This document shows, in pieces, positions 4,057 to 54,500 of a DNA stretch of 64,000 bases (its first letter is position 1; each line of letters starts with the position of its first letter). The notes under the pieces were generated by a model. The model was not told where the DNA came from and did no database searches. It saw nothing but the letters and a program-made list of their open reading frames with translations. Origin of the DNA: a virus. A program made the translations under genes and the position numbers. The stretch lies in the IMG/VR virus record IMGVR_UViG_3300036939_000074; one strand, given 5' to 3'.

Positions 4057-4692
4057 TTAGGCTGGCAGTAATTCCATGACTTCACGCCGGAGTCTTTCTA
4101 ACTCCCGAATGCCTGCTTCATCATGTTGAGTGGCTTCCAGGAGTAATGGATAACCAGAGTCTATTGATTCCAAACATTCAGCACGGGTGGCCGGTCTACC
4201 TTCTCGCAGCCAATGCACTTCGAGCGGGTCGCCGAGTTTAAAAAGGAGTCCATTCGAGACGTTGAAGACTTTGTAAGATTTCGTTATCCATAAGGCAACA
4301 ACTCCAGGTTGCCGCTTGATGGCGATGCCAGGTGGAAGCTCAACATTTTCAGGGACATTGGTTTCTCGTCGTTCTAATGAGCGCTGCGTTAGGAAGGGGC
4401 AAGCTCTCATCGCCCATTCCATACACTCGCGGTGCGAAGGGGGTTCTGAAATTGTCTTGTTGATCGCACACATTGGTCCGATTCCAAACGCTAGATAAGC
4501 TCCTAGTTTTTGTCCGCAAATCCAGCAGAGTTTTTTATGGATGGCTGGCTGCATCTTACTCCCATCAATGCAACGAAAATCATAAACGCCATTCACTTGG
4601 GCGACAAACCAAGGAACGGGATAACCGCGTTCAATGGGCAGGGACAATAAGCGTTTAGGGATGGGTGGCAAATCTTGGCGGTGTTCGTTCAT
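4057..4692 (-). CDS. Conserved Cys-rich hypothetical protein (putative Zn-binding)
   Basis: GYPVPWFV, CWICG, GPMC, EPPSH-EC, ACPFL motifs. Confidence 0.7.
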   Translation of the reverse strand: MNEHRQDLPPIPKRLLSLPIERGYPVPWFVAQVNGVYDFRCIDGSKMQPAIHKKLCWICGQKLGAYLAFGIGPMCAINKTISEPPSHRECMEWAMRACPFLTQRSLERRETNVPENVELPPGIAIKRQPGVVALWITKSYKVFNVSNGLLFKLGDPLEVHWLREGRPATRAECLESIDSGYPLLLEATQHDEAGIRELERLRREVMELLPA

Positions 4693-7250: not shown

Positions 7251-7314
7251 TATTCATGATGTATTTACTTCCTATACAAATGATGGGAAGTAAATTTTAG
7301 GTTTTATCGGAGTG

Positions 7315-43750: not shown

Positions 43751-45514
43751 TTATTGGTCAAGAGCATATAAGCCAAACAACAGATGGTCACGGTCTTGCT
43801 TGGCTTGCAGACTCAAAGATTGCCAACTGGTTAATGTCTCAGTTGCCGTCGAAATGATTTCAGAATTTCCCTCGTATAATTTAGCGCTATAGGGGCTTCT
43901 AAAATCTGATGGCCGAGCTTTTTCATAATCTCTATAAGCTGGATTGTTGGTCAGATATTTTAGTTGTACCTCTTCATTCGAGATTGCTCTATCTTTTGCG
44001 TAATTATGAGTTATTGCTGAATTATTTAGCTTAACTTCTAATACATGACCTAATTCGTGAAACATTACTGTCTTGGGGTCATGAGCAAAGCCCGTATGAA
44101 TAAAAGATTCTCCAGCTCCAGGTATATTAAAAAAATTGTCTTGATAACCTCTGTTTTGACCAATATCCTTCGTGGGGTCATCTGGTGCGACAAAACCCAC
44201 CCGCACATCTAATTCTTGCTTGGTCAATCTACCAAATAGTTGAGCAGCTTCCGTACAGTCTTGAACTCGCTGAACTACTTTTGGGTCTTCTGTTTCTAGA
44301 TGCTTCCCTGCTTTTTTAAGTAATAGAAACTCAATATATCTACTTTCAAACGGACTAAGTTGACGAATCTCAGATTCTGATTTTCCTTTATCGATCAACG
44401 AAATCACCGCTTGATACTCACGTTCTACTTTTTGTGAGTTTTTAAAATCCACTGATTCTAGTAATTGATCGATAGCAGCCCCGTAACGGAGTTCACTCTT
44501 AATAACCCCCTCGTGCCACCCAATCGAATCCTTGTCATCTTTAGATTTTTTGGGGTTTTGACGTAATGCCGTGAGTTCTAGAACCCGCTCCCTTAAAGCG
44601 TGTTTATTAAATGCTTCCCGGTTAGCCATTTGTCGATTAAGCGCTTGCCGCACAGCATCCGGGTCTATTTTTGATGTTTTAAGGGCTTCAGCCACTTTTT
44701 CGGCTAACTTAGAGCTAACTCCAAGACTCAAACTGATGGCTTTTTGAGTTGGAGTTTCCTCAGCGGCGGGAGTTTCCATCTCGTTAATTTGTTGCTCTAA
44801 CTCTTGGCTGATTTTTTTGAATCGATCGTCTTGTGTTCCCGTTTCGGCGAGCTTATCGAATAGAGCTTTTATCCGATTGGCTCCGTGGTACGCTCCGATG
44901 ACTCCTAAAGCCGCACTTCCGGCTACAAGTACCCTTAATCCTGCAAGCTCAGCTGGAGCTGAACTCAGAACTATTGCCCCTAAAACAGCGATCGCAGATT
45001 CTTCGGCAAGTGCTCCAGCAAATTTCGCTGCCGATAATGGGTCAATCGCCGCGCCCTTGGCTACATCTGGAAATTTTTTAACGGTTTGGGCGATGTCATT
45101 AGTAGCCCATTTCAATTTCATTTCCGATTGGGTTACGACATCAGGCAGGGAAGATGCAGCAGAACGATAAGCATCCCCAGCACCCTTGCCCAATAATTTT
45201 TCTAACTGCGACGCGAGATTGTTATTAAAGTCTGTAACGGGTTTGGATTGCAATGCACTCTTAAGTTTTGAGGCATTTTCGCTGATGACCTTATTAACTG
45301 AGTTCTGTAAATCCTCAACCTGACTGACGAAGTTATTCTTGGGTGATTCGGTTGTACCAGGGGATGCAAACTGCCCTCCAGGCCCCCGGGTCACCGTAAT
45401 ATCTTTGCCATCTCCAGTTTTGTGCTGCGTCTCAAAACTGCCGTTGTGTTTCTGGGCTTGCACCAGGAGCGCCAGCTTTAGAGCTTCTGCACATACTCGA
45501 ACCTGGTCACTCAT
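43751..45514 (-). CDS. Leader-family protein 3 with C-terminal HExxH zinc-metallopeptidase-like domain
   Basis: AEALKLALLVQAQ...FETQH...ITVTRGPGGQFASPG; VMFHELGHVLE; SPYSAKLYEG-SEIIS. Confidence 0.75.
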   Translation of the reverse strand: MSDQVRVCAEALKLALLVQAQKHNGSFETQHKTGDGKDITVTRGPGGQFASPGTTESPKNNFVSQVEDLQNSVNKVISENASKLKSALQSKPVTDFNNNLASQLEKLLGKGAGDAYRSAASSLPDVVTQSEMKLKWATNDIAQTVKKFPDVAKGAAIDPLSAAKFAGALAEESAIAVLGAIVLSSAPAELAGLRVLVAGSAALGVIGAYHGANRIKALFDKLAETGTQDDRFKKISQELEQQINEMETPAAEETPTQKAISLSLGVSSKLAEKVAEALKTSKIDPDAVRQALNRQMANREAFNKHALRERVLELTALRQNPKKSKDDKDSIGWHEGVIKSELRYGAAIDQLLESVDFKNSQKVEREYQAVISLIDKGKSESEIRQLSPFESRYIEFLLLKKAGKHLETEDPKVVQRVQDCTEAAQLFGRLTKQELDVRVGFVAPDDPTKDIGQNRGYQDNFFNIPGAGESFIHTGFAHDPKTVMFHELGHVLEVKLNNSAITHNYAKDRAISNEEVQLKYLTNNPAYRDYEKARPSDFRSPYSAKLYEGNSEIISTATETLTSWQSLSLQAKQDRDHLLFGLYALDQ

Positions 45515-45555
45515 AAAAATTAAAATAATCTTTTACTGATCATAATGAGTGTCTC

Positions 45556-45570
45556 GCGCACTAAGTGCGC
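45556..45570. repeat. Dispersed palindrome copy 6
   Basis: Extends to gtctcgcgcactaagtgcgcgagac (45551-45575); about 42 bp upstream of the 45514 start. Confidence 0.9.
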
Positions 45571-45582
45571 GAGACCGAAAGG

Positions 45583-45939
45583 TTAACGAATTGCCCCTTC
45601 CGGTGGTGGCGGGTCTGGGAGCCGAAGCTTTGGCTCATCGTTTACTTTAATATTCCACGGTGAGGGAAATTGCTGTAGGACATATTCCACGTTGTTGAAA
45701 TCTGAGTAGCCCCACTTCCCCGACTTCAGGCCATCCATCAGTCTGCCATTGCTGCCAATTGCAGGTAGTCCGACATAGTAATAAATGAATTCGGTGACTT
45801 CCTTACTATCTTTATCCAAAAACAGCTCTATCTGAATTTGCGCTATCTGAGCCGTGGTTTCTAATTTGTCCCCTTGCATCGGGGTCAACGTAATTTCGCA
45901 AATTTTTTTTGAACCCAGTTTCACCGTGAAACCGCTCAT
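45583..45939 (-). CDS. Hypothetical protein
   Basis: 118-aa ORF with GAGGA upstream. Confidence 0.6.
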   Translation of the reverse strand: MSGFTVKLGSKKICEITLTPMQGDKLETTAQIAQIQIELFLDKDSKEVTEFIYYYVGLPAIGSNGRLMDGLKSGKWGYSDFNNVEYVLQQFPSPWNIKVNDEPKLRLPDPPPPEGAIR

Positions 45940-46018
45940 TCAGTAAGTCCTCTCATGATTCACTAATCCTGGCTAAGCTAAATATGATGTCAGTGTTCAT
46001 CCATCAATCTTATCAACC

Positions 46019-46522
46019 ATGAATCAACGAATTGAGCAGATCGTTGCGGGAGAAGTCCAAGTAGACATGGCCTATATCCCTACAGGAATCGAGACCCAAA
46101 CTGGTCGGTATGTACAAGAAAAAACCGAAGAGCTGATGTCTGACTCACACAAGGCGCTTTCAGCTGCCTTGGATAAACTTTACGAAATGACACCGACAGA
46201 TTGGGATATTGTGTTTGCTCTGGCGGGGAAAGTTCAATCGAATTTATTTCGATTATGGAAGTCTGCAACCTCATCTGTAAATTTAGACCCCGAAACCATG
46301 CTGCCACGAATTTATTTTATGGTTACGGAGGATGGACACCGCTCTAGGTACGTTCATTTATTTACTCCTGAGGAATGGCAGTTAGCGAAAAATTCGACTT
46401 ATGACAGCGATCGCTTAATCGAGCAAGTTGTAGAAAGTATAAGAGAGCAAGTTGTGGATAATTTAACGGCTCTTATTGACGGGGGTAAGTTCTATGACTG
46501 CAACCAGGAGGAAATCGATTAA
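46019..46522 (+). CDS. Hypothetical protein
   Basis: 167-aa ORF. Confidence 0.6.
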   Translation: MNQRIEQIVAGEVQVDMAYIPTGIETQTGRYVQEKTEELMSDSHKALSAALDKLYEMTPTDWDIVFALAGKVQSNLFRLWKSATSSVNLDPETMLPRIYFMVTEDGHRSRYVHLFTPEEWQLAKNSTYDSDRLIEQVVESIREQVVDNLTALIDGGKFYDCNQEEID

Positions 46523-46547
46523 TCCGATCCATTACGCTTGCACTCAA

Positions 46548-46573
46548 TAAAAAAGCCGTCCATTAGGACGGCT
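46548..46573. terminator. Terminator between convergent genes
   Basis: A-run followed by agccgtcc-atta-ggacggct. Confidence 0.6.
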
Positions 46574-46613
46574 GAGCAACGGCTGTGTAAGTTTTATTTA
46601 TGCGGGATGGGTT

Positions 46614-46823
46614 CTAGTCGTCAACGATTGCATAGTCTTCGTGACGAACAAACAAAACCTTGCCGTCAGGAGTTTTAACTTGCAAGGCGTTATCGCTAGC
46701 TGGTGTAATCTCTTCGCCAATTACGCTTCCTGATGGATAATCGCAATTGGGCTGATAACCCCTACCTGCATAGCGTAAAAACGCACCTTCTTGAGATAGA
46801 TTTACCGCAGCTTTGATGGCCAT
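46614..46823 (-). CDS. Small hypothetical protein
   Basis: 69-aa ORF with AAGGA upstream. Confidence 0.5.
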   Translation of the reverse strand: MAIKAAVNLSQEGAFLRYAGRGYQPNCDYPSGSVIGEEITPASDNALQVKTPDGKVLFVRHEDYAIVDD

Positions 46824-46850
46824 AATTTGTGAATCCTTTTCTAGGTTACT

Positions 46851-46930
46851 GGCTGTGCGCCAGCCCTGATAGGGATTACTTGGTGTCTTCGGGAGCGTAT
46901 GTATGAGTCGCCACTAACCTAATAGGAATT
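46851..46930 (-). CRISPR. Degenerate CRISPR-repeat-like unit(s), not a canonical array
   Basis: Minus strand ACACCAAGTAATCCCTATCAGGG (46864-46886) and AATTCCTATTAGG (46918-46930) resemble the AATCCCTAT(T/C)AGGGATTGAAAC core I recall from cyanobacterial type I-D repeats. Confidence 0.4.
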
Positions 46931-46967
46931 TCCCTCAACCAATAGGCATTATACACTTGATGGGCAA

Positions 46968-48137
46968 TTAAAGAAACCCCAATGTTTGCAGCGCTTTTTG
47001 GAGGTACTGCACATTAGAGGTGCTCTCCTTGGGTAGCACTTCGCAGACATACAAGGGATTGCCCATCGCCTTTAATCCGTGCCGCATCACAGAAGACTCT
47101 ATGGAGCCAAGCGGCTTAACATTGTGCATCCGAATCAGGACATTTAAAACACTCAGAATCCGCTCCGCATCTTCCTCTGTCCCTGACCCCTTGCATCCAA
47201 AATGCATCAGCCAGTCGGGGAATAGTTCAATTTCGTAAGCGTGAGTTATGGCATGAGGAACGACGGAGGGAGAGACTAATGCTTTCTTGCCCACAACGGC
47301 AATCTCACAAGCTTTTTTGATAGCCCAGAACATCGGCATTAACTGCATGGGCAGCTGTGACTCAATTGGAACATTTGAATAGACCCAAACTTTCTCATGT
47401 TTGTAATCGCTGCCAAACATAACAGCGCGAAGGGTCAACTCTTTTTGCCATTGAGGCAACACACAGGCTTTAAGCGCTGATGAACCCAATGACCGACGAT
47501 TGCTGTAACATTGCACCCTGTAGGGTGAACCCGAAGCAGAAGCAACAGACGCCGGCTTACCCGTGATTGCACAGACGGAACGTATCCCCTCGCCTCTTTT
47601 TGAGCGCTGTTTGGCATGAGTGTAGTTATTGAGTTCCTCCGTAAACGAGATATCTGCTGATATCTCTTTAGGTTTGGAGTTGAGATGGGGTTGAAGGTAA
47701 TCGGCCAGCTCAACCAATTTGGCTTTATCCAGCCCTTCGGCTTCCTCCACCTTGGCAAACAGCAGCCAGTAGCCCAATTTTAATCCGCCTGATTGAATTT
47801 CAAGTTCATCTGGGGATATCAGCGGGTACTTTTGGAGCAGCGCCTCTTCAAATACCTCTGCATTTGGGGCGAGGCTCCGCAGGAATATGGCAAAATCTGC
47901 GAAGCGATCGCACCAAATAGATGCGGGGATGCTTTGCCCTATCTTAGCTAAACGGGCTGGGGCGTAAGAGTTTTTGTAGGCCATCACTTTGGCAATGACC
48001 GACTCAATGACAGTTGTTAGGGGAAGTTCACAGAACGACTCAGGAGCTGTTAAGCCTTTCCCATGACGCTCAATCGCGTCTGAAATAACAATCGCTTGCT
48101 GTTGTTCGCTTAAAAATTCAGTTAGTAGGGCAAACAT
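46968..48137 (-). CDS. cas10d: Truncated Cas10d/Csc3 (type I-D large subunit) homolog lacking the HD domain
   Basis: Collinear motifs ERHGKGL, CDRFADF, EIQSGG...GYW, FTEELNNY..AK...CAIT, QCYSNR..LG...W..ELTLR, GKKALVSPSVVP match the middle of cyanobacterial Cas10d as I recall it. Confidence 0.78.
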   Translation of the reverse strand: MFALLTEFLSEQQQAIVISDAIERHGKGLTAPESFCELPLTTVIESVIAKVMAYKNSYAPARLAKIGQSIPASIWCDRFADFAIFLRSLAPNAEVFEEALLQKYPLISPDELEIQSGGLKLGYWLLFAKVEEAEGLDKAKLVELADYLQPHLNSKPKEISADISFTEELNNYTHAKQRSKRGEGIRSVCAITGKPASVASASGSPYRVQCYSNRRSLGSSALKACVLPQWQKELTLRAVMFGSDYKHEKVWVYSNVPIESQLPMQLMPMFWAIKKACEIAVVGKKALVSPSVVPHAITHAYEIELFPDWLMHFGCKGSGTEEDAERILSVLNVLIRMHNVKPLGSIESSVMRHGLKAMGNPLYVCEVLPKESTSNVQYLQKALQTLGFL

Positions 48138-48727
48138 AGACCCTCCAGCTGATGGTAGGCGAGTTTGTAGCGATCGCTTAGGTGGGTCTCGACTTCTTGC
48201 AGTAGTTCTTTTTCAAACTCACCGACAACAGCTTCTAGCTCCTGGCGGTGAGTTTCATACAGCTGACCGACCAAGACTTGGTCGGGGATTTCCAAAAACA
48301 ACTCTAAAGTGTAAACCCGCAAGTCTTGGGTTTGAGCCTTCATGCCCTTGGCATTGTAGACAAGTTGCCTCATATTGTCCTCGCCCGGATCAACGTCACC
48401 TGGGGCAATGATGGCAAAACCAATGCCGTGCTGGACAAACAAACTGGCGAGCTGGGGGCAAAACAGCTCAATTTTTTGCGTGAGATGGTTAAAGGATTTA
48501 TCGGGATACTCCGACCATGCAATCGCCGTCAACAACCGAGACTTAAACCCTAATAGGTCAAAGATTTCGCCATAATAGGACTCGGATAATTCAATTAATT
48601 CAACCATGCCCGCCATGTTGGATTTTTCTACAATACTGCGGAGTAAACGAACATCTTTTTGCAAGTCTCGGTTTTTTTGCCGAGCCGCAAGGAGGGCTAG
48701 TTTCAAACCATTAGTTTTATCTGACAT
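48122..48727 (-). CDS. Hypothetical protein, overlapping both neighbours
   Basis: 201-aa ORF with short overlaps on each side. Confidence 0.65.
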   Translation of the reverse strand: MSDKTNGLKLALLAARQKNRDLQKDVRLLRSIVEKSNMAGMVELIELSESYYGEIFDLLGFKSRLLTAIAWSEYPDKSFNHLTQKIELFCPQLASLFVQHGIGFAIIAPGDVDPGEDNMRQLVYNAKGMKAQTQDLRVYTLELFLEIPDQVLVGQLYETHRQELEAVVGEFEKELLQEVETHLSDRYKLAYHQLEGLCLPY

Positions 48728-49052
48728 ACAAAAATTCCTGTTCTACTCGCTGCCAAAATCCAGGGTTCTCATTGCAGGCGGGTTGATAGGTAGCGCTCTC
48801 TTCACAAAGCGCCAAGCCGATACCCTGCCCTTGATACTCACTCTTGACTTCAATCGCCACGCACAAAAAGTCTCTGTCGCGGGTCAAGAAGCCGACGATG
48901 GGCATATCCTCTCGGCTCTCATCTACGGCTAGCCAACAGCGAGCAATGTTGGTCTCATCCCAGTCGTCCCACCAAAGGTCAAAACCATTCAGCTCACTCA
49001 GCCACGGCTGAAGCTCTGCGTATTCGTACTCAACAATACTGATATTTTTCAT
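48717..49052 (-). CDS. Minimal GNAT-family acetyltransferase
   Basis: IEVKSEYQGQGIGLAL (acetyl-CoA motif A), NENPGFW. Confidence 0.7.
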   Translation of the reverse strand: MKNISIVEYEYAELQPWLSELNGFDLWWDDWDETNIARCWLAVDESREDMPIVGFLTRDRDFLCVAIEVKSEYQGQGIGLALCEESATYQPACNENPGFWQRVEQEFLYVR

Positions 49053-49346
49053 CTTCCAGAACGCCCGTTATAGTCGGCGGCACTCGTTGAGAATTGGAAT
49101 CGCCCGTTAGGAGTCGGCGGCACTGCACAAAAATCAGAATAACATATTGCAATGCATTTTTTCTGTGCGCCTGTAAAGTCCTTACTGTGTAATGCTTGTG
49201 CTTGATTGAACCGGATTTTTGTGCGGTTGTTAATTCGTTTGAATAAAGCGCATAGCAAAAACCCTTGGGAGCAAAGTACCATCAAAATAGCAAAAACCCT
49301 TTGTAAGAAAGCTTTTGACCCTTGGGGGAGACAAAGAGGGCTTGAT

Positions 49347-50198
49347 TTAATAACCCCATTCGTCTTCTGGGTAACCTGTCGGTGGTTCCACATCGGTGAC
49401 GCCATTGCATATATCCGGATCTTCTTCCAATCCCCCACAAACTAAGTAAAGAGCTTTCATGAGTGGTATAGCTGCTCTTTCTTCCTGAGTTAGCGGCTGG
49501 GCTTTCCCCATCGCATTAGGGTCATAGTTAAGTTGGCCCTGAACAACAGCGATGTGAGAATGAAACCTCGCGACTTCACCTTCAATATCAAATTCATAGG
49601 CATAGACTTGATGAGTGGAAGATACTTCATAGTACTCAGGATTTTGCCACTCTCCTGTCATATCCCGCTCGAAGTGCAACGCATCCCAATCAATCCACGT
49701 CCTAGTTTTTTGATGGGCTAGCACGGCTGACGTGATTAGGGTTCTATTCTTTTTAATCCATTGGTCTTTTAAACTGTAAATGAGTGAAACGGTTTTCTGG
49801 TTGCCGTGTGAGGCAAATTTGTATTTAGGAAAGGATTTAGCGTATCGATTCAAGTATCGAATTAAGTGTAATAGTGCTTTGGCTTCAGAGGAAAACTCTT
49901 GGCTGTATTCTTTAAATTGGGTAACAGCGAGTTGAATCCTATTCCTCCTTTCCAGTTCTTGCTGTTCTATTGCCTGTTTCTTCCTTAATCGCTTTATTGC
50001 GTTGTAGCCCGGTATATCTTTCAGCCGCTTCACCCTGATAGCGTGATGCTCTTTTCGTAAACTCTCTATAAGAGGAATTGCCAGCTCTCTAGTCCCTGTC
50101 TTGATTTGAAGCAAAATGTTTAAATCTGTGGCGGTTTCATTGACTTCCATCAGTCTGACATAGCCATCGAAAAAACCAATGTATTTGGAGCGTTCCAT
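49347..50198 (-). CDS. Hypothetical protein
   Basis: 283-aa ORF. Confidence 0.65.
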   Translation of the reverse strand: MERSKYIGFFDGYVRLMEVNETATDLNILLQIKTGTRELAIPLIESLRKEHHAIRVKRLKDIPGYNAIKRLRKKQAIEQQELERRNRIQLAVTQFKEYSQEFSSEAKALLHLIRYLNRYAKSFPKYKFASHGNQKTVSLIYSLKDQWIKKNRTLITSAVLAHQKTRTWIDWDALHFERDMTGEWQNPEYYEVSSTHQVYAYEFDIEGEVARFHSHIAVVQGQLNYDPNAMGKAQPLTQEERAAIPLMKALYLVCGGLEEDPDICNGVTDVEPPTGYPEDEWGY

Positions 50199-50200
50199 TT

Positions 50201-50938
50201 TTAGTTACCGACCAACACTTCTTCTTTGTTGAGGGGGCAAGGCGCTTCTAGGTATGTTTTTAACCGGGTGTAAGCTGCATTAACTTCTGTAAACTTTGCA
50301 GCATTACCGCCTCGGTCGGGATGATGTTTGAGGGACATTCTTCGGTAAGCTGTTTTTAGCTCTGCGAGGGTGTACTGCTGCCGAGACAAGCCTAGAGTTT
50401 GGTAGTCGGCGTGCGCGCCCAGCCTTGGTGCTTGGTTCTTTTGATGATTGTGGTTGCTACTTCCTGATTTTTGGCTGTAATGATCGCCTTGGTGATTACT
50501 ACTTCCTGATTTTTGGTTATTTTTGCGCTTACTTCCGGGGGTTGCTGGCGGCTTTTTCCCCCAGTATGTGCGACTCTCCATAATTACCTTTTCCGTGGCG
50601 TCCGAGGGTGTTTTGCACCAACGAGTCCAAAGCCGCTTATCATCCAATGTCGGGTGCAGATTCCAGTGACTGATTTCCCCAACACGGATAATACATGTCC
50701 AATCACGACCAACACAAAAGATGAATCCGCGTCTCATCTTTTCTGGTTTGGTCGTGTCAAACACTTCATACAGATACTCAGGGGTTTTGGAGTAATTTGC
50801 CCAAAAGCGGGTTTTGATGTCGTTAACAGTTTCCTCATGGCAAGGATGCACAGGTTCACCATGAATTGCAATCAGCCGTATCTCAGCTCTGTAGCCTTGA
50901 CGGGCATAGTACATCGTTTCCTTCAAATTTTTTCTCAT
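50201..50938 (-). CDS. Protein with C-terminal DnaJ (J) domain
   Basis: YQTLGL...LKTAYRRMSLKHHPDRGG...F-EVNAAY--L. Confidence 0.85.
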   Translation of the reverse strand: MRKNLKETMYYARQGYRAEIRLIAIHGEPVHPCHEETVNDIKTRFWANYSKTPEYLYEVFDTTKPEKMRRGFIFCVGRDWTCIIRVGEISHWNLHPTLDDKRLWTRWCKTPSDATEKVIMESRTYWGKKPPATPGSKRKNNQKSGSSNHQGDHYSQKSGSSNHNHQKNQAPRLGAHADYQTLGLSRQQYTLAELKTAYRRMSLKHHPDRGGNAAKFTEVNAAYTRLKTYLEAPCPLNKEEVLVGN

Positions 50939-50940
50939 CT

Positions 50941-51312
50941 CTATCCCCGGCTTAACACAGACATGATGTACTGATTCAAGCTCACATTTTCCGCCCTGGC
51001 TTTTTCGGTCAGACGACGATGCAAACTTTTAGGTATCCGTACAAGCAACCTACCACTGTAGGTATCGTCGGTACTGGGTAAGGGAATGTCATCTCCATTT
51101 TCGTAGGCAGTCTCAACCCACAGCTGCCTTGCCTCATTGATGTTTGCGATCGCTTCATCTAACGTTTCAGCTTGGGTGAGGCATCCCTGTAGCTCCTTGA
51201 TTTCGACCACATACCCTGATTCCGGGTCGGGATAAAGCGTAATTGGGTATTTCACCTCCAAGTAATATGCCAATGGCTTTCTGCTGTCTTGGTTCATCTT
51301 TTTACGACTCAA
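50941..51312 (-). CDS. hicB: HicB family antitoxin (orphan)
   Basis: GYVVEIKELQGCLTQAETLDEAI...IPLP; YSGRLLVRIPKSLHRRL...ENVSLNQY RHH domain. Confidence 0.9.
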   Translation of the reverse strand: MSRKKMNQDSRKPLAYYLEVKYPITLYPDPESGYVVEIKELQGCLTQAETLDEAIANINEARQLWVETAYENGDDIPLPSTDDTYSGRLLVRIPKSLHRRLTEKARAENVSLNQYIMSVLSRG

Positions 51313-51331
51313 TGTTTTTCTCGTTGGTCAA

Positions 51332-51351
51332 TAGTATCGCATATGATACTA
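51332..51351. promoter_or_regulatory. Inverted repeat upstream of hicB (candidate operator)
   Basis: tagtatc-gcatat-gatacta. Confidence 0.5.
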
Positions 51352-51432
51352 CTTCCGGAATTATTTGCCGGAAAAATTGATGAACCAATAAGGTCAATTT
51401 TGGGAACCATTGGTTCCCGGTTAGGTCTGTTG

Positions 51433-51447
51433 GCGCACTAAGTGCGC
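51433..51447. repeat. Dispersed palindrome copy 7
   Basis: Extends to ttggcgcactaagtgcgccaa (51430-51450). Confidence 0.9.
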
Positions 51448-51521
51448 CAATTTGCTTACAAGGGTCAAGACCTTTCTCCTCAACGGTTTCAAGAATTTTA
51501 AGGGTGCTGTACTTACAAGGG

Positions 51522-54500
51522 TCAACGAGTGCTTTGCCGCAACTGCTCCAAAATTGTGCGCTCTTCCGGCGTGAGTTGAGCGATCGCTTGAGAGTAAAGC
51601 TCAACGCCCACTCGCTTTTTGAGGTCAATTAGACGACGAATCATTTCCGAGTGAGTGAGTTCGGTGTGTTTCCACAAAATGCCTGCCGTGAGTTCGCATT
51701 GCACCTGTATCAATTGCCGCTGAGAGTCGGATAGGGGGGTTGTAACCGAAACCGGTGCCGTTGTAACCGACTTCTCGGCACAACTGGTTACAGGTTCCAA
51801 TGGTTGCTGGGTAAGGGGTTGAGCATCTCGTGTAACCGCTGACACCGTGTAACCGGAATTTGGGGTGCTCCCCTCTATAGGAGAAGAATGAACTGAATTA
51901 AAAGAAGGGTTACTTTTCTCTTCTATTACCTCTTTATTTTCAGTTACATGGTTACAACTACTACTTAAGGAGGCTGTATCCATTGAGAATAGGTCGTTTT
52001 CAGGTGTAACTAACTCATGGTTACACTCAGTTACATCAGTTACACCAAATAATTGAGCGGGAATGAGCCACGCCTTGCGCGGGATGGTTTCGGGTGGATT
52101 GGGTAGAACCTCCACACCGTCCACCATGCGCGGCACGATGAGGGCGCGTTCATAGGCTAAGACCTGGTCCTGGGATCTCGCAAAGCGAACGGTGGTATCG
52201 ACAACGCCCCCCAACTTGATCACCAGTGGCTTCAGTGCCTTTAAGTTGTAGGTCGCCGGTTTAAAGCGACGATCCACCAGATTCCAGGCGTCGGCTGTGT
52301 AGATAGCGACGTAGTGGCAGCCACCGCGTTCAACATGGCGCTTGAGATTCCAGTCGCCTACCTTTGATTCCGATTCCAGGGCTAAAAGTTTCTCGACGAA
52401 ATCTTGTAAGGAGTCGCCGGAGGAATCAGCATCGTTCTCGGAAGAGCATAGGTTGTCAATCACCCAACTCTTCATGTCCTCCAGGCCGCCTGTCAGGTCG
52501 ATCACCTTCTGGGCATACCAGGTGACGATAGCTAAGCTCTGAGCGATTCTGGCATGGGCTAAGGGGAGACGCGGGAGTAACTCAGCCTCAAGAGACGCGA
52601 TCGCCTCTTTAGGGCAGCCCAGTTTCAACAGCTGGGGGAATGCACCAGAGGCTTTGGCTTGGGCTACCTTAAGTTCCTGGAATGATGCCTTGCTGCCTTC
52701 GGAGGCGCGTTCAAAGGGCAGACGGATGAAGCGGGTATAGGTTGCCGCTTGGTCACCCCCAAATACGTGATTGGACGTGATGCCCATGGGTGCGTGAGGC
52801 ACCTGTTCGTTGCCCCGAACCTTACGCGGCTTCCAGTTATACCAATTCTTGGCAAGTTCTTCCGTCTCCGGATTGCGCTCTGGGTCGTCCCAGAAGAAGG
52901 GCAAGCTGCCCGTTCGGCAACCGTGTTCGTAGAGGGCGGAAGTACTCACTCGTGCCAGCATTCCCACCTGGGGCCAGTTGGTGCCTACTAAGGAGAGAGC
53001 GGTTTCAGCGGCGAGTGTTTTGCAGCTGCCCGGTTCTCCATGGGAGTTAAGAAGGGGGAAAGAGCTATCACTATTGAAAATTTCCTGAGAGTGTAATCCC
53101 GCCGCCACCCACCCGATCGCCAGTAAGACTTGATAGATGTTCTTACTACCAAAGAATTTACGGGAGCCTGCAATGAGTCGGGAGAGCGCCTCTGGATCTT
53201 CAGGGGCAAGCTCTGGGCAGGGGATAAAGTCGTCTTTCCCTAGGGAGGGGTTAAAGACCCAACCTGACTCATTCTCGTCGGTTAGGTTACCTTCCTTGGT
53301 ATACTGGCGATCGCGGAAGACCCACACGCCATCCACTTGTTGCCCATAGCGGTCGATTCGTTTGAATACCTTACCTTGTCGGGTGGTACGATATTCATGC
53401 AGGCGCACATTGAATAGCGCTTGCAGTTGATTGCGGGATAAGTTACAGACAATTCCCACCCCCAACGCCTTCTTCATGGCATCAATGAAAGTATCAACCT
53501 TTGTGTAATCGGTGGAGTTGAGGATTACTCTTTGCTGGTGACTCTCGAAAGATCGTTTGACTTGGAGCACCAAAGCACCGCCAAAATCATCCTGAATTTC
53601 CCGCTCTACGACAAAATCAAAGTTACACAAGGGTTGCCAAACTTTACGGACTTCTTCCCCCTTGCCGACCATAATCCATTCGCCAATTTCCCCCATGTAT
53701 GACATTGGAGCCTTCCAGGCACTGCGTTGCCAGCGATATTGATTTTCCTCTTCTTCTTCGTCAATCGCTTGCTCGATCGCATTTTCGAGCTGACGGTACA
53801 TTTGTTCGTCGGGGACACCTGCACCCTGGATGTAATCAATCCAATCTTTGGCATCTCCCTTCTCCGGCATTTCGGGCCATAAAATCAGCGGGTTAATCGC
53901 GACCGCTGTCACTTTTTGCTGATGACAGGCTTTGAGTAAAGCCGCTGCACTATCTCTCCCAGTCTTGTCATTATCGGCCCAAATTACCAGCAGCGGCTTA
54001 AGCCCAGAGTCGTCGTTAGACAAGCCGGGTTCTTCGTCGAGCTGCTCATAATTGAAGCTAAAGGCGTCTTTTAAGCCTTTGGCAATCCAAGGGAACCCCC
54101 CTTCACCGCCTTGGTTGCAAGTGGCAACGAGGCCAATGCTACGGATGGATTCAACTGCCGATTCTCCCCCTACGGCAAACACAATCCCACGATTTTTTAG
54201 GGTTTCAACCGCTTCATCCTGACGGTATAACGGCCAAGGGTCTCCCCCTTTCCCGATCTTCCAATCCCCTCCCTCGGTCTGCCAGTACGGGCGTACCAAT
54301 TTGGTTTGCTTGCCATAGGCTGGACGGCGATCGCTCCACTGAGTGCGGACGACTTTTTGATTAGGTGAGTACTGATACTCGATAAATTGCTCTTTGGCCC
54401 CTGTTTTGGGGTCGTGGGTGACAATTTCGGCAATCTCCGTCATGGGCACCTCTAAGATGCCTACCCCTAAAGAGTCTTTGAGTTTGAGCTTGACGGCTAA

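Follow-up and report, generated by a model that had tools for sequence, protein, structure and literature searches.

CRISPR repeat-like boxes in a conserved module, probably a promoter and 5′ leader, shared by three phages

The locus and its cassette

Type I-D is the main CRISPR type of cyanobacteria, and a pair of short units resembling its repeats, placed on phage DNA just past the stop codon of a Cas10d-like gene, raises the question of what such units do there. The preliminary description of this site took them for degenerate type I-D-like repeats and offered three readings, namely a solitary-repeat RNA anti-CRISPR, a crRNA-like regulatory RNA and an eroded array. The DNA analyzed here (the window, 64,000 nt of IMG/VR record IMGVR_UViG_3300036939_000074) comes from a biocrust metagenome and represents a cyanophage or phage-plasmid, with genes for a tail fibre, ParB, primase, HicB and DnaJ and with 33 HIP1 sites against about 1 expected. 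The three minus-strand motifs described past the stop codon, TATAAT, AATTCCTATTAGG and ACACCAAGTAATCCCTATCAGGG, were all found in place. The AAT starts of the two units lie 53 nt apart, and it was correctly remarked that this period is below that of a normal repeat plus spacer (about 72 nt for DR5 repeats). The site, all on the minus strand, is laid out as follows.

46968..48137 (-), 389-aa ORF, the upstream neighbor, weakly similar to the Cas10d mid-region and outside the module
46968-46970 (-), stop codon TAA of the 389-aa ORF, from the sequence
144 nt (-), intergenic region between the 389-aa ORF and the 69-aa ORF, from the sequence
46581..46966 (-), 386-nt cassette of putative promoter, leader and 69-aa ORF, in the window and missing from the closest relatives
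46948-46953 (-), TATAAT, from the sequence
46948..46955 (-), -10-like box TGTATAAT, from the sequence and the three-member alignment
46907..46930 (-), Box A, unit 1 of the preliminary description, AATTCCTATTAGGTTAGTGGCGAC, conserved in three phages
46918-46930 (-), AATTCCTATTAGG, motif inside Box A, from the sequence
46887..46906 (-), variable linker from Box A to Box B, from alignments
46864..46886 (-), Box B, unit 2 of the preliminary description, ACACCAAGTAATCCCTATCAGGG, from sequence, alignment and folds
46864-46877 (-), 14-nt core of Box B, AATCCCTATCAGGG, equal to DR5 repeat positions 16-29
within 46864..46886 (-), Box B 5′ arm AATCCCTA, the predicted anti-Shine-Dalgarno strand, from predicted folds
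Box B 5′ flank (-), CACCAAGT, from the sequence
46849..46863 (-), P2 hairpin CTGGC-GCACA-GCCAG, conserved stem with a varying loop
46832..46843 (-), ribosome-binding region TAGAAAAGGATT, partner strand of AATCCCTA in the predicted long-range helix, from folds
46614..46823 (-), 69-aa acidic ORF (pI 4.7), the cargo of the cassette, with homologues 45-58% identical
46554..46573 (-), intrinsic terminator closing the operon, common to relatives without the cassette

The Cas10d homolog reported upstream of the units was borne out, weakly, by matches of the 389-aa ORF to PADLOC Cas10_Id (1.5e-11) and TIGR03174 (3.6e-7); its residues 130-252 align to positions 447-577 of the Cas10d profile. A pattern scan and tblastn returned no relative of this protein in viral contigs.

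The units belong to a stretch that is missing as a block from the closest relatives. Homology to the closest relative (L001, whose Cas10d-like protein is 84% identical) stops at 46967 and restarts at 46580 in blastn, and the distance from the stop codon to the shared terminator is 24 nt in that relative versus 386 nt in the window. The short form without the cassette was also present in contigs from three other biocrust or soil runs. The 24-nt filler of L001 resembles the 3′ part of the leader at a level reached equally by 178 of 2000 shuffles, which is not significant. A separate difference between these genomes lies further along, within a plus-strand 167-aa ORF (46019-46522), where 191 nt of the window (46170-46362) are swapped for a 40-nt GC-rich palindrome, AGGTCAACAGCCCC...GGGGCTGTTGAC, in L001 and in the contig of one other run, cutting the ORF to 71 aa. 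The palindrome looks like a small palindromic insertion or the footprint left by a deletion.

A module shared by three phages and its predicted fold

Scanning viral contigs for exact matches to the junction AATCCCTATCAGGGCTGGC yielded one 70.9-kb contig (IMGVR_UViG_3300035684_000003), and a second pattern scan of viral contigs yielded a 154-kb contig (IMGVR_UViG_3300041964_000083). Alignment revealed that the whole intergenic region, and not the core alone, is homologous across the three contigs with a column identity of 75-78%. The DNA around the module is not alignable and the sites are non-syntenic; the three phages are distantly related, their shared proteins being 45-71% identical. Conservation of a non-coding stretch at this level, in distant phages and at non-syntenic sites, argues from sequence comparison that it is under selection. 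The likeness of the two units to each other (11/13 matches) is weak taken alone, and it is because both are conserved in the two other phage contigs that we regard them as real features.

The order of elements is the same throughout, with a TGTATAWT box followed after 17-19 nt by Box A, then the variable linker, Box B, P2, the sequence TAGA..GGA(A)TT and the ATG. The -10 box reads TGTATATT in both other members and stands at that distance from Box A in all three. No convincing -35 box was found at the site, a consensus scanner predicted no promoter there, and TGTATAWT shows no enrichment across the window; the promoter may also be dispensable, because read-through from the upstream operon would transcribe the unit too. 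Box A, which occurs once in the window, has the consensus AAT-N-CCT-W-T-Y-AGGTT-R-GTGGCGAC and comprises two mini-hairpins, first one of 3 bp (CCT/AGG) and then the conserved RGU-GGCG-ACY, with one compensatory change (A-U to G-C) in the RGU/ACY stem. The linker differs among members in sequence and length (about 19-31 nt), and within Box B AGTAATCCCTATYAGGGCTGG is invariant in all three members. The P2 hairpin, which starts directly after the position equivalent to the Cas6 cut site, has the consensus CTGGY/RCCAG with loops of 4-5 nt and a compensatory C-G to U-A change in the copy of the 154-kb phage. A covariance model of the module (R1) scored a single copy in each phage at 110-123 bits, and nothing else in the window exceeded 14.6 bits. 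The same model found no copy in the 151 cyanobacterial genomes searched, blastn found none in GenBank phages or plasmids, and two metagenome pattern scans found none; looser patterns run on viral contigs gave chance matches only, and megablast of window positions 44000-52000 against plasmids and phages gave no match.

Two short resemblances within the module can be noted in passing. Box A shares a 10-mer, CCTATTAGGT (46917-46926), with a Microcystis DR4 repeat, a length too short to judge; that repeat is associated with type III-B (PMC4428289 Table 3). Within P2, TGGCGCAC (46853-46860) matches half of the palindrome GGCGCACTAAGTGCGCC, of which the window holds seven copies (at 7312, 8299, 13374, 27186, 31847, 45553 and 51430), a likeness that we judge coincidental because the other two family members lack TGGCGCAC.

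The neighbors of the module vary. Adjacency to Cas10d, which had been taken to make coincidence less likely, is no conserved link: the relatives with the Cas10d-like gene (P0002-P0005) lack the element, and the other two phages that bear the element have no Cas10d-like gene. Downstream of the element in the 154-kb phage, at 1.7-2.9 kb (L064:2574-3769, the locus of this contig), homologues of Csx3 (226 aa; PADLOC 2.5e-18; Pfam PF09620 at 28.9 bits, above the cut-off) and Csx16 (131 aa; 7.6e-9) lie side by side. By sequence they qualify as candidate ring nucleases of the phage, directed against type III CRISPR signaling. A PNK3P-like phosphatase gene adjoins the cargo ORF in the same phage. No cas-like neighbor was found for the copy in the 70.9-kb phage, which leaves cas-derived genes within 3 kb of two of the three copies.

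The cargo ORFs of the three members (69, 91 and 96 aa) are mutually unrelated and all acidic, with pI values of 4.1-4.8. The 69-aa ORF represents a real gene family, with homologues (P0007-P0010 and P0013) at 45-58% identity in phage contexts without the leader, and homologues elsewhere of the 96-aa ORF likewise have no leader. Structure prediction gave a poor model for the 69-aa protein (pLDDT 61.7), and a protein atlas returned unnamed clusters only. A domain of about 60 residues from this protein also occurs as 7-9 tandem copies in proteins of 617-1897 aa, which indicates a repeatable small beta-rich module and not solely a stand-alone phage protein. In the 70.9-kb phage, the module, the ORF and their own terminator lie in reverse orientation inside tail genes. 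A 217-aa ORF at L074:8725-9378, beside the cassette in that phage, is 71% identical to window ORF 4057-4692 (-), which sits 42 kb from the window's own leader copy; this placement implies that the cassette occupies different places in related genomes.

Folds were predicted both as an RNAalifold consensus and for single sequences, and the two approaches agree. In each of the three members, the minimum-energy fold brings AAUCCCUA, the 5′ arm of Box B, together with the ribosome-binding region (UAG..GGAUU) in a long-range helix. The P2 hairpin lies inside this helix, and the Shine-Dalgarno GGA has an unpaired probability of 0.0-0.02 in every member. The consensus structure has 88.5% paired cells, compared with 25-44% for slid controls. 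Three pairs are changed on both sides, one of them in P2 and one in the RGU/ACY stem, a number reached by 19 of 500 shuffles, and the covariation score is 0.229 versus 0.151 for shuffles, a thin comparison with three sequences. The helix between the anti-Shine-Dalgarno and Shine-Dalgarno strands (helix 4) contains no compensatory change among the three members, and the intergenic region of the window folds no better than shuffled sequence (z = +0.29). We consider the structural support for the predicted leader fold to be modest.

Likeness to DR5 repeats and rival explanations

Repeats of 37 nt from filamentous cyanobacteria, many of which end in AATCCCTAT(T/C)AGGGATTGAAAC, have been tabulated (PMC4916379 Table 4; PMC4428289 Table 3), and this ending, given in the preliminary description, proved to be real in both papers and in Nostoc arrays. 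Such DR5-type repeats serve cyanobacterial type I-D/III arrays, the array of cyanophage N-1 included (PMC4916379; PMC4428289). The core of Box B, AATCCCTATCAGGG, is identical in 14 of 14 positions to positions 16-29 of the 37-nt DR5/type I-D repeats (AATCCCTATYAGGG), the natural C/T loop variant included, and occurs once in the window. By chance, an exact copy of any 14-mer from the conserved 22-nt repeat core should turn up 0.0097 times per window when both strands are counted, and 1e-5 times on the sense strand of the intergenic region alone. Identity to the repeat ends exactly at the equivalent of G29, position 46864. Cas6-1 cleaves such repeats between G29 and A30, and a stably formed hairpin is required for the cleavage (PMC5741207).

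Beyond this half, the likeness fades. We compared the units in a 37-nt frame with nine natural DR5 variants taken from arrays. Unit 2 matches them in 14/14 core positions, 2/8 positions of the 8-nt handle (ATTGAAAC, which is thus absent at Box B) and at most 7/15 of the first 15 nt, the first 9 nt being unrelated; its total of 22-23/37 compares with a lowest identity of 25/37 between natural variants. Unit 1 matches in 11-12/14 core and 0/8 handle positions. The 3′ handle had been called degenerate, and poor it is, but the word understates a match at chance level in both units. Alignment to natural repeats, which had been proposed as a check, turned out unfavorably: the best natural DR5 repeats match the window in 19/20 positions over positions 10-29, and the best blastn-short match (n = 9) spans 20 nt at 95% identity, covering 54% of the repeat (coverage 0.54) at 32.2 bits. 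The natural 7-bp stem (AATCCCT/AGGGATT) is shortened to 4 bp in Box B. This 4-bp hairpin has a probability of 0.76-0.93 in the isolated 37-nt frame, at -4.8 kcal/mol versus -7.9 kcal/mol for the natural repeat; in the context of the whole leader, the local CCCT-ATC-AGGG hairpin has a probability of 0.003-0.06 in every member and comes at a cost of 1-4 kcal/mol when enforced. Searches against Rfam, CRISPR-DR included, were negative for the window at gathering score and for 46780-46990 even at E<=10, and no repeat within 2 mismatches of the 22-mer of the window was found in 401 cyanobacterial genomes. The repeat variant ACACCA..TAATCCCTATYAGGG was present in only one genome of the species collection, a Nostoc. 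In Nostoc parmelioides FACHB-3921, three units lie outside the arrays, a solitary DR5 repeat of full length and two degenerate ones that lack the handle, against about 0.1 expected by chance.

Of the earlier interpretation, then, the likeness to repeats stands, being real, exact over the hairpin half and conserved, and the three readings built on it each fail on their own test. A CRISPR-related role of the boxes remains plausible, given this likeness and the cas-derived genes near two of the three copies.

How might such a likeness have arisen, and what might it do? One idea, doubtful in our view and compatible with a leader, is that an abundant leader RNA acts as a Racr-like decoy, its hairpin binding host Cas6 and titrating type I-D or type III crRNA biogenesis while Cas7 would coat about 65 nt upstream, as with RacrIF1. 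Like RacrIF1 and its relatives, the element is phage-borne and intergenic, lies past a promoter-like box, copies a Cas6-binding hairpin and is near candidate anti-CRISPR genes. More specifically, its core is the half of the repeat that Cas6 retains, the C/T loop variant among the members parallels natural repeat variants, and the -10 box some 70 nt upstream falls inside the 250 bp used for Racr candidates, by sequence and with TGTATAAT/TGTATATT at the same distance in all three copies; Racrs often lie beside acr genes, and here the neighbors are Cas10d-like, or Csx3 and Csx16. What counts in RacrIF1 is the stem-loop together with the RNA upstream of the cut, the 8-nt handle being largely dispensable (PMC10651486). 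However, SRUFinder calls a solitary repeat unit at >=90% identity, >=90% coverage and >=41.1 bits in blastn-short (PMC10651486), and Box B, with a coverage of 0.54 and 32.2 bits, lies below the last two values; mismatches in the handle and at the 5′ end cap its coverage at about 62%, as compared with DR5 variants, from which the host's repeat may differ. The lack of a CRISPR-DR match in Rfam at E<=10 and of a near-identical repeat in the 401 genomes speaks against the decoy as well, as do the shortening of the stem from 7 to 4 bp with its weaker hairpin, and the improbability of the local hairpin within the leader, given that Cas6-1 needs a stable one (PMC5741207). RacrIF1 and its relatives are moreover free small RNAs, whereas here the hairpin arm is part of a longer leader that is followed by an ORF. 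As first proposed, the solitary-repeat RNA anti-CRISPR falls short of the SRUFinder definition on coverage and bits.

A serious alternative to any link with Cas6, and a little more credible to us than the decoy while still unlikely, is that the module is real and its likeness to a CRISPR repeat convergent or coincidental, with Cas proteins uninvolved; an anti-Shine-Dalgarno strand and a small hairpin would then by themselves spell the core. AAUCC is imposed by complementarity to a GGAUU-type ribosome-binding site and AGGG by a local hairpin, which leaves a 3-nt loop and a few flanking bases as free positions. The ribosome-binding site has a complement in Box A too, agreement with repeats is near chance level in the handle and the 5′ 15 nt, and the copy in the 70.9-kb phage has no cas-like neighbor. 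This explanation must nevertheless accommodate a 14/14 identity expected 0.0097 times per window, a likeness that stops exactly at the Cas6 cut position, the presence of cas-derived genes, a rarity in phages, no more than 3 kb from two of the three copies, and the richness of the three phages in HIP1, which points to hosts from the group that uses this repeat. An improbable reading on the DNA level makes Box A and Box B related palindromic operators (CCTAT-N-AGG) that are bound by a repressor of the phage or the host and control the cassette promoter. Aca proteins control acr promoters in this manner. The boxes do resemble each other, are imperfect palindromes and keep their sequence in three phages, and Box A begins about 10 nt past the predicted transcript start; but Box B is far downstream for an operator, about 65-80 nt from the -10 box, the G-U wobbles and variable-loop stems (P2 and RGU/ACY) fit an RNA of the sense strand, the cassette has no HTH gene and each box occurs once in the window.

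The remaining explanations treat the boxes as parts of an array. With two repeat-like boxes and, between them, a linker of variable sequence and length, the site recalls a crRNA-like regulatory RNA, in which pseudo-repeats flank a pseudo-spacer that guides Cascade to a host promoter, as in a Cracr or CreA mini-array; phage Cracr RNAs are a known class, and type I crRNA-like RNAs retain the canonical 8-nt 5′ handle (bioRxiv 10.1101/2024.10.29.618823). The phage element resembles Cracr and CreA/CreR mini-arrays in this layout, but the handle that they carry is missing after either box (0/8 after Box A, 2/8 after Box B), making the loading of a Cascade guide unlikely, and the 53-nt period leaves about 15 nt for a guide, so that we hold this proposal of the preliminary description to be very unlikely. 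Least credible of all is an eroded CRISPR array or a scrap recombined from a host array, functionless at present. Loss of the 3′ part does occur in terminal repeats of real arrays, as in one array (L009), and degenerate solitary units exist in Nostoc. Against this, the boxes and their non-repeat flanks are kept at 75-78% identity in three phages at non-syntenic sites, the two 37-nt frames share only 17/37 positions, the boxes show no array periodicity, and no CRISPR array was found in the window and no repeat family at the site. We rejected the eroded array on the grounds of a fixed two-box module with the same non-repeat flanks in three phages. The first reading is thereby corrected, in that the site is not a decayed array and falls outside the definition of a solitary repeat unit.

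A candidate leader and its possible link to Cas6

We therefore prefer a different account of the two repeat units, one that we find somewhat probable, in which they are Box A and Box B of a conserved promoter and leader of about 130 nt that belongs to an accessory-gene cassette. The promoter and 5′ leader would drive a small accessory ORF that differs in each phage, and AAUCCCUA would pair with the ribosome-binding region such that the ORF is translationally masked until the helix opens. From the predicted folds, masking of the cargo ORF's ribosome-binding site is the most likely function of the leader. Leaders that sequester a ribosome-binding site and synthetic UTR insulators cleavable by Csy4/Cas6 are both known designs. 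The module resembles the former in having an upstream strand that pairs with the Shine-Dalgarno site, which is here predicted only, and the latter in having a Cas6-type hairpin between the strands, where a cut would free the site.

If something opens or uses this leader, host Cas6 is the most attractive candidate, because Box B copies the part of the repeat that Cas6 retains (positions 16-29, up to G29|A30). A functional link of the leader to host Cas6 is plausible on the strength of the exact core, its end at the cut position, the C/T loop variant and the cas-derived neighbors of two of three copies; it is weakened by the need of Cas6-1 for a stable hairpin, given a predicted fold that disfavors the local one. 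The sequences themselves show conservation, architecture, exact identity to the repeat core and a predicted pairing; that the -10 box starts transcripts, that translation is masked and that Cas6 has any part in this is what we infer.

The most elaborate form of such a link is a switch and decoy operated by Cas6, which we think improbable. Where CRISPR activity is absent, the 5′ arm of Box B would hide the ribosome-binding site and the acidic ORF would stay silent. Where a type I-D or type III Cas6 is present, it would capture the CCCU-AUY-AGGG hairpin and cut after AGGG, detaching the masking strand, so that P2 would protect the remaining 5′ end and the ribosome-binding site would be free; an anti-defense protein would in this way be made only where needed, and the 5′ fragment bound to Cas6 would meanwhile serve as a Racr-like decoy. 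We know of no natural leader operated by Cas6, and if the switch were true it would be the first natural phage RNA with a host Cas enzyme as its inducer.

To our knowledge, no anti-CRISPR against type I-D has been established, and few systems of RNA-based counter-defense are known. If linked to Cas6, the leader may represent a new way for phages to sense or decoy this enzyme. Even with no role for Cas6, the module would serve as a marker for accessory or anti-defense cassettes in cyanophages. The preferred promoter and leader make the module a candidate for a new cis-regulatory RNA, one that is short, conserved and testable, that contains the repeat half retained by Cas6 and that precedes variable small acidic proteins.
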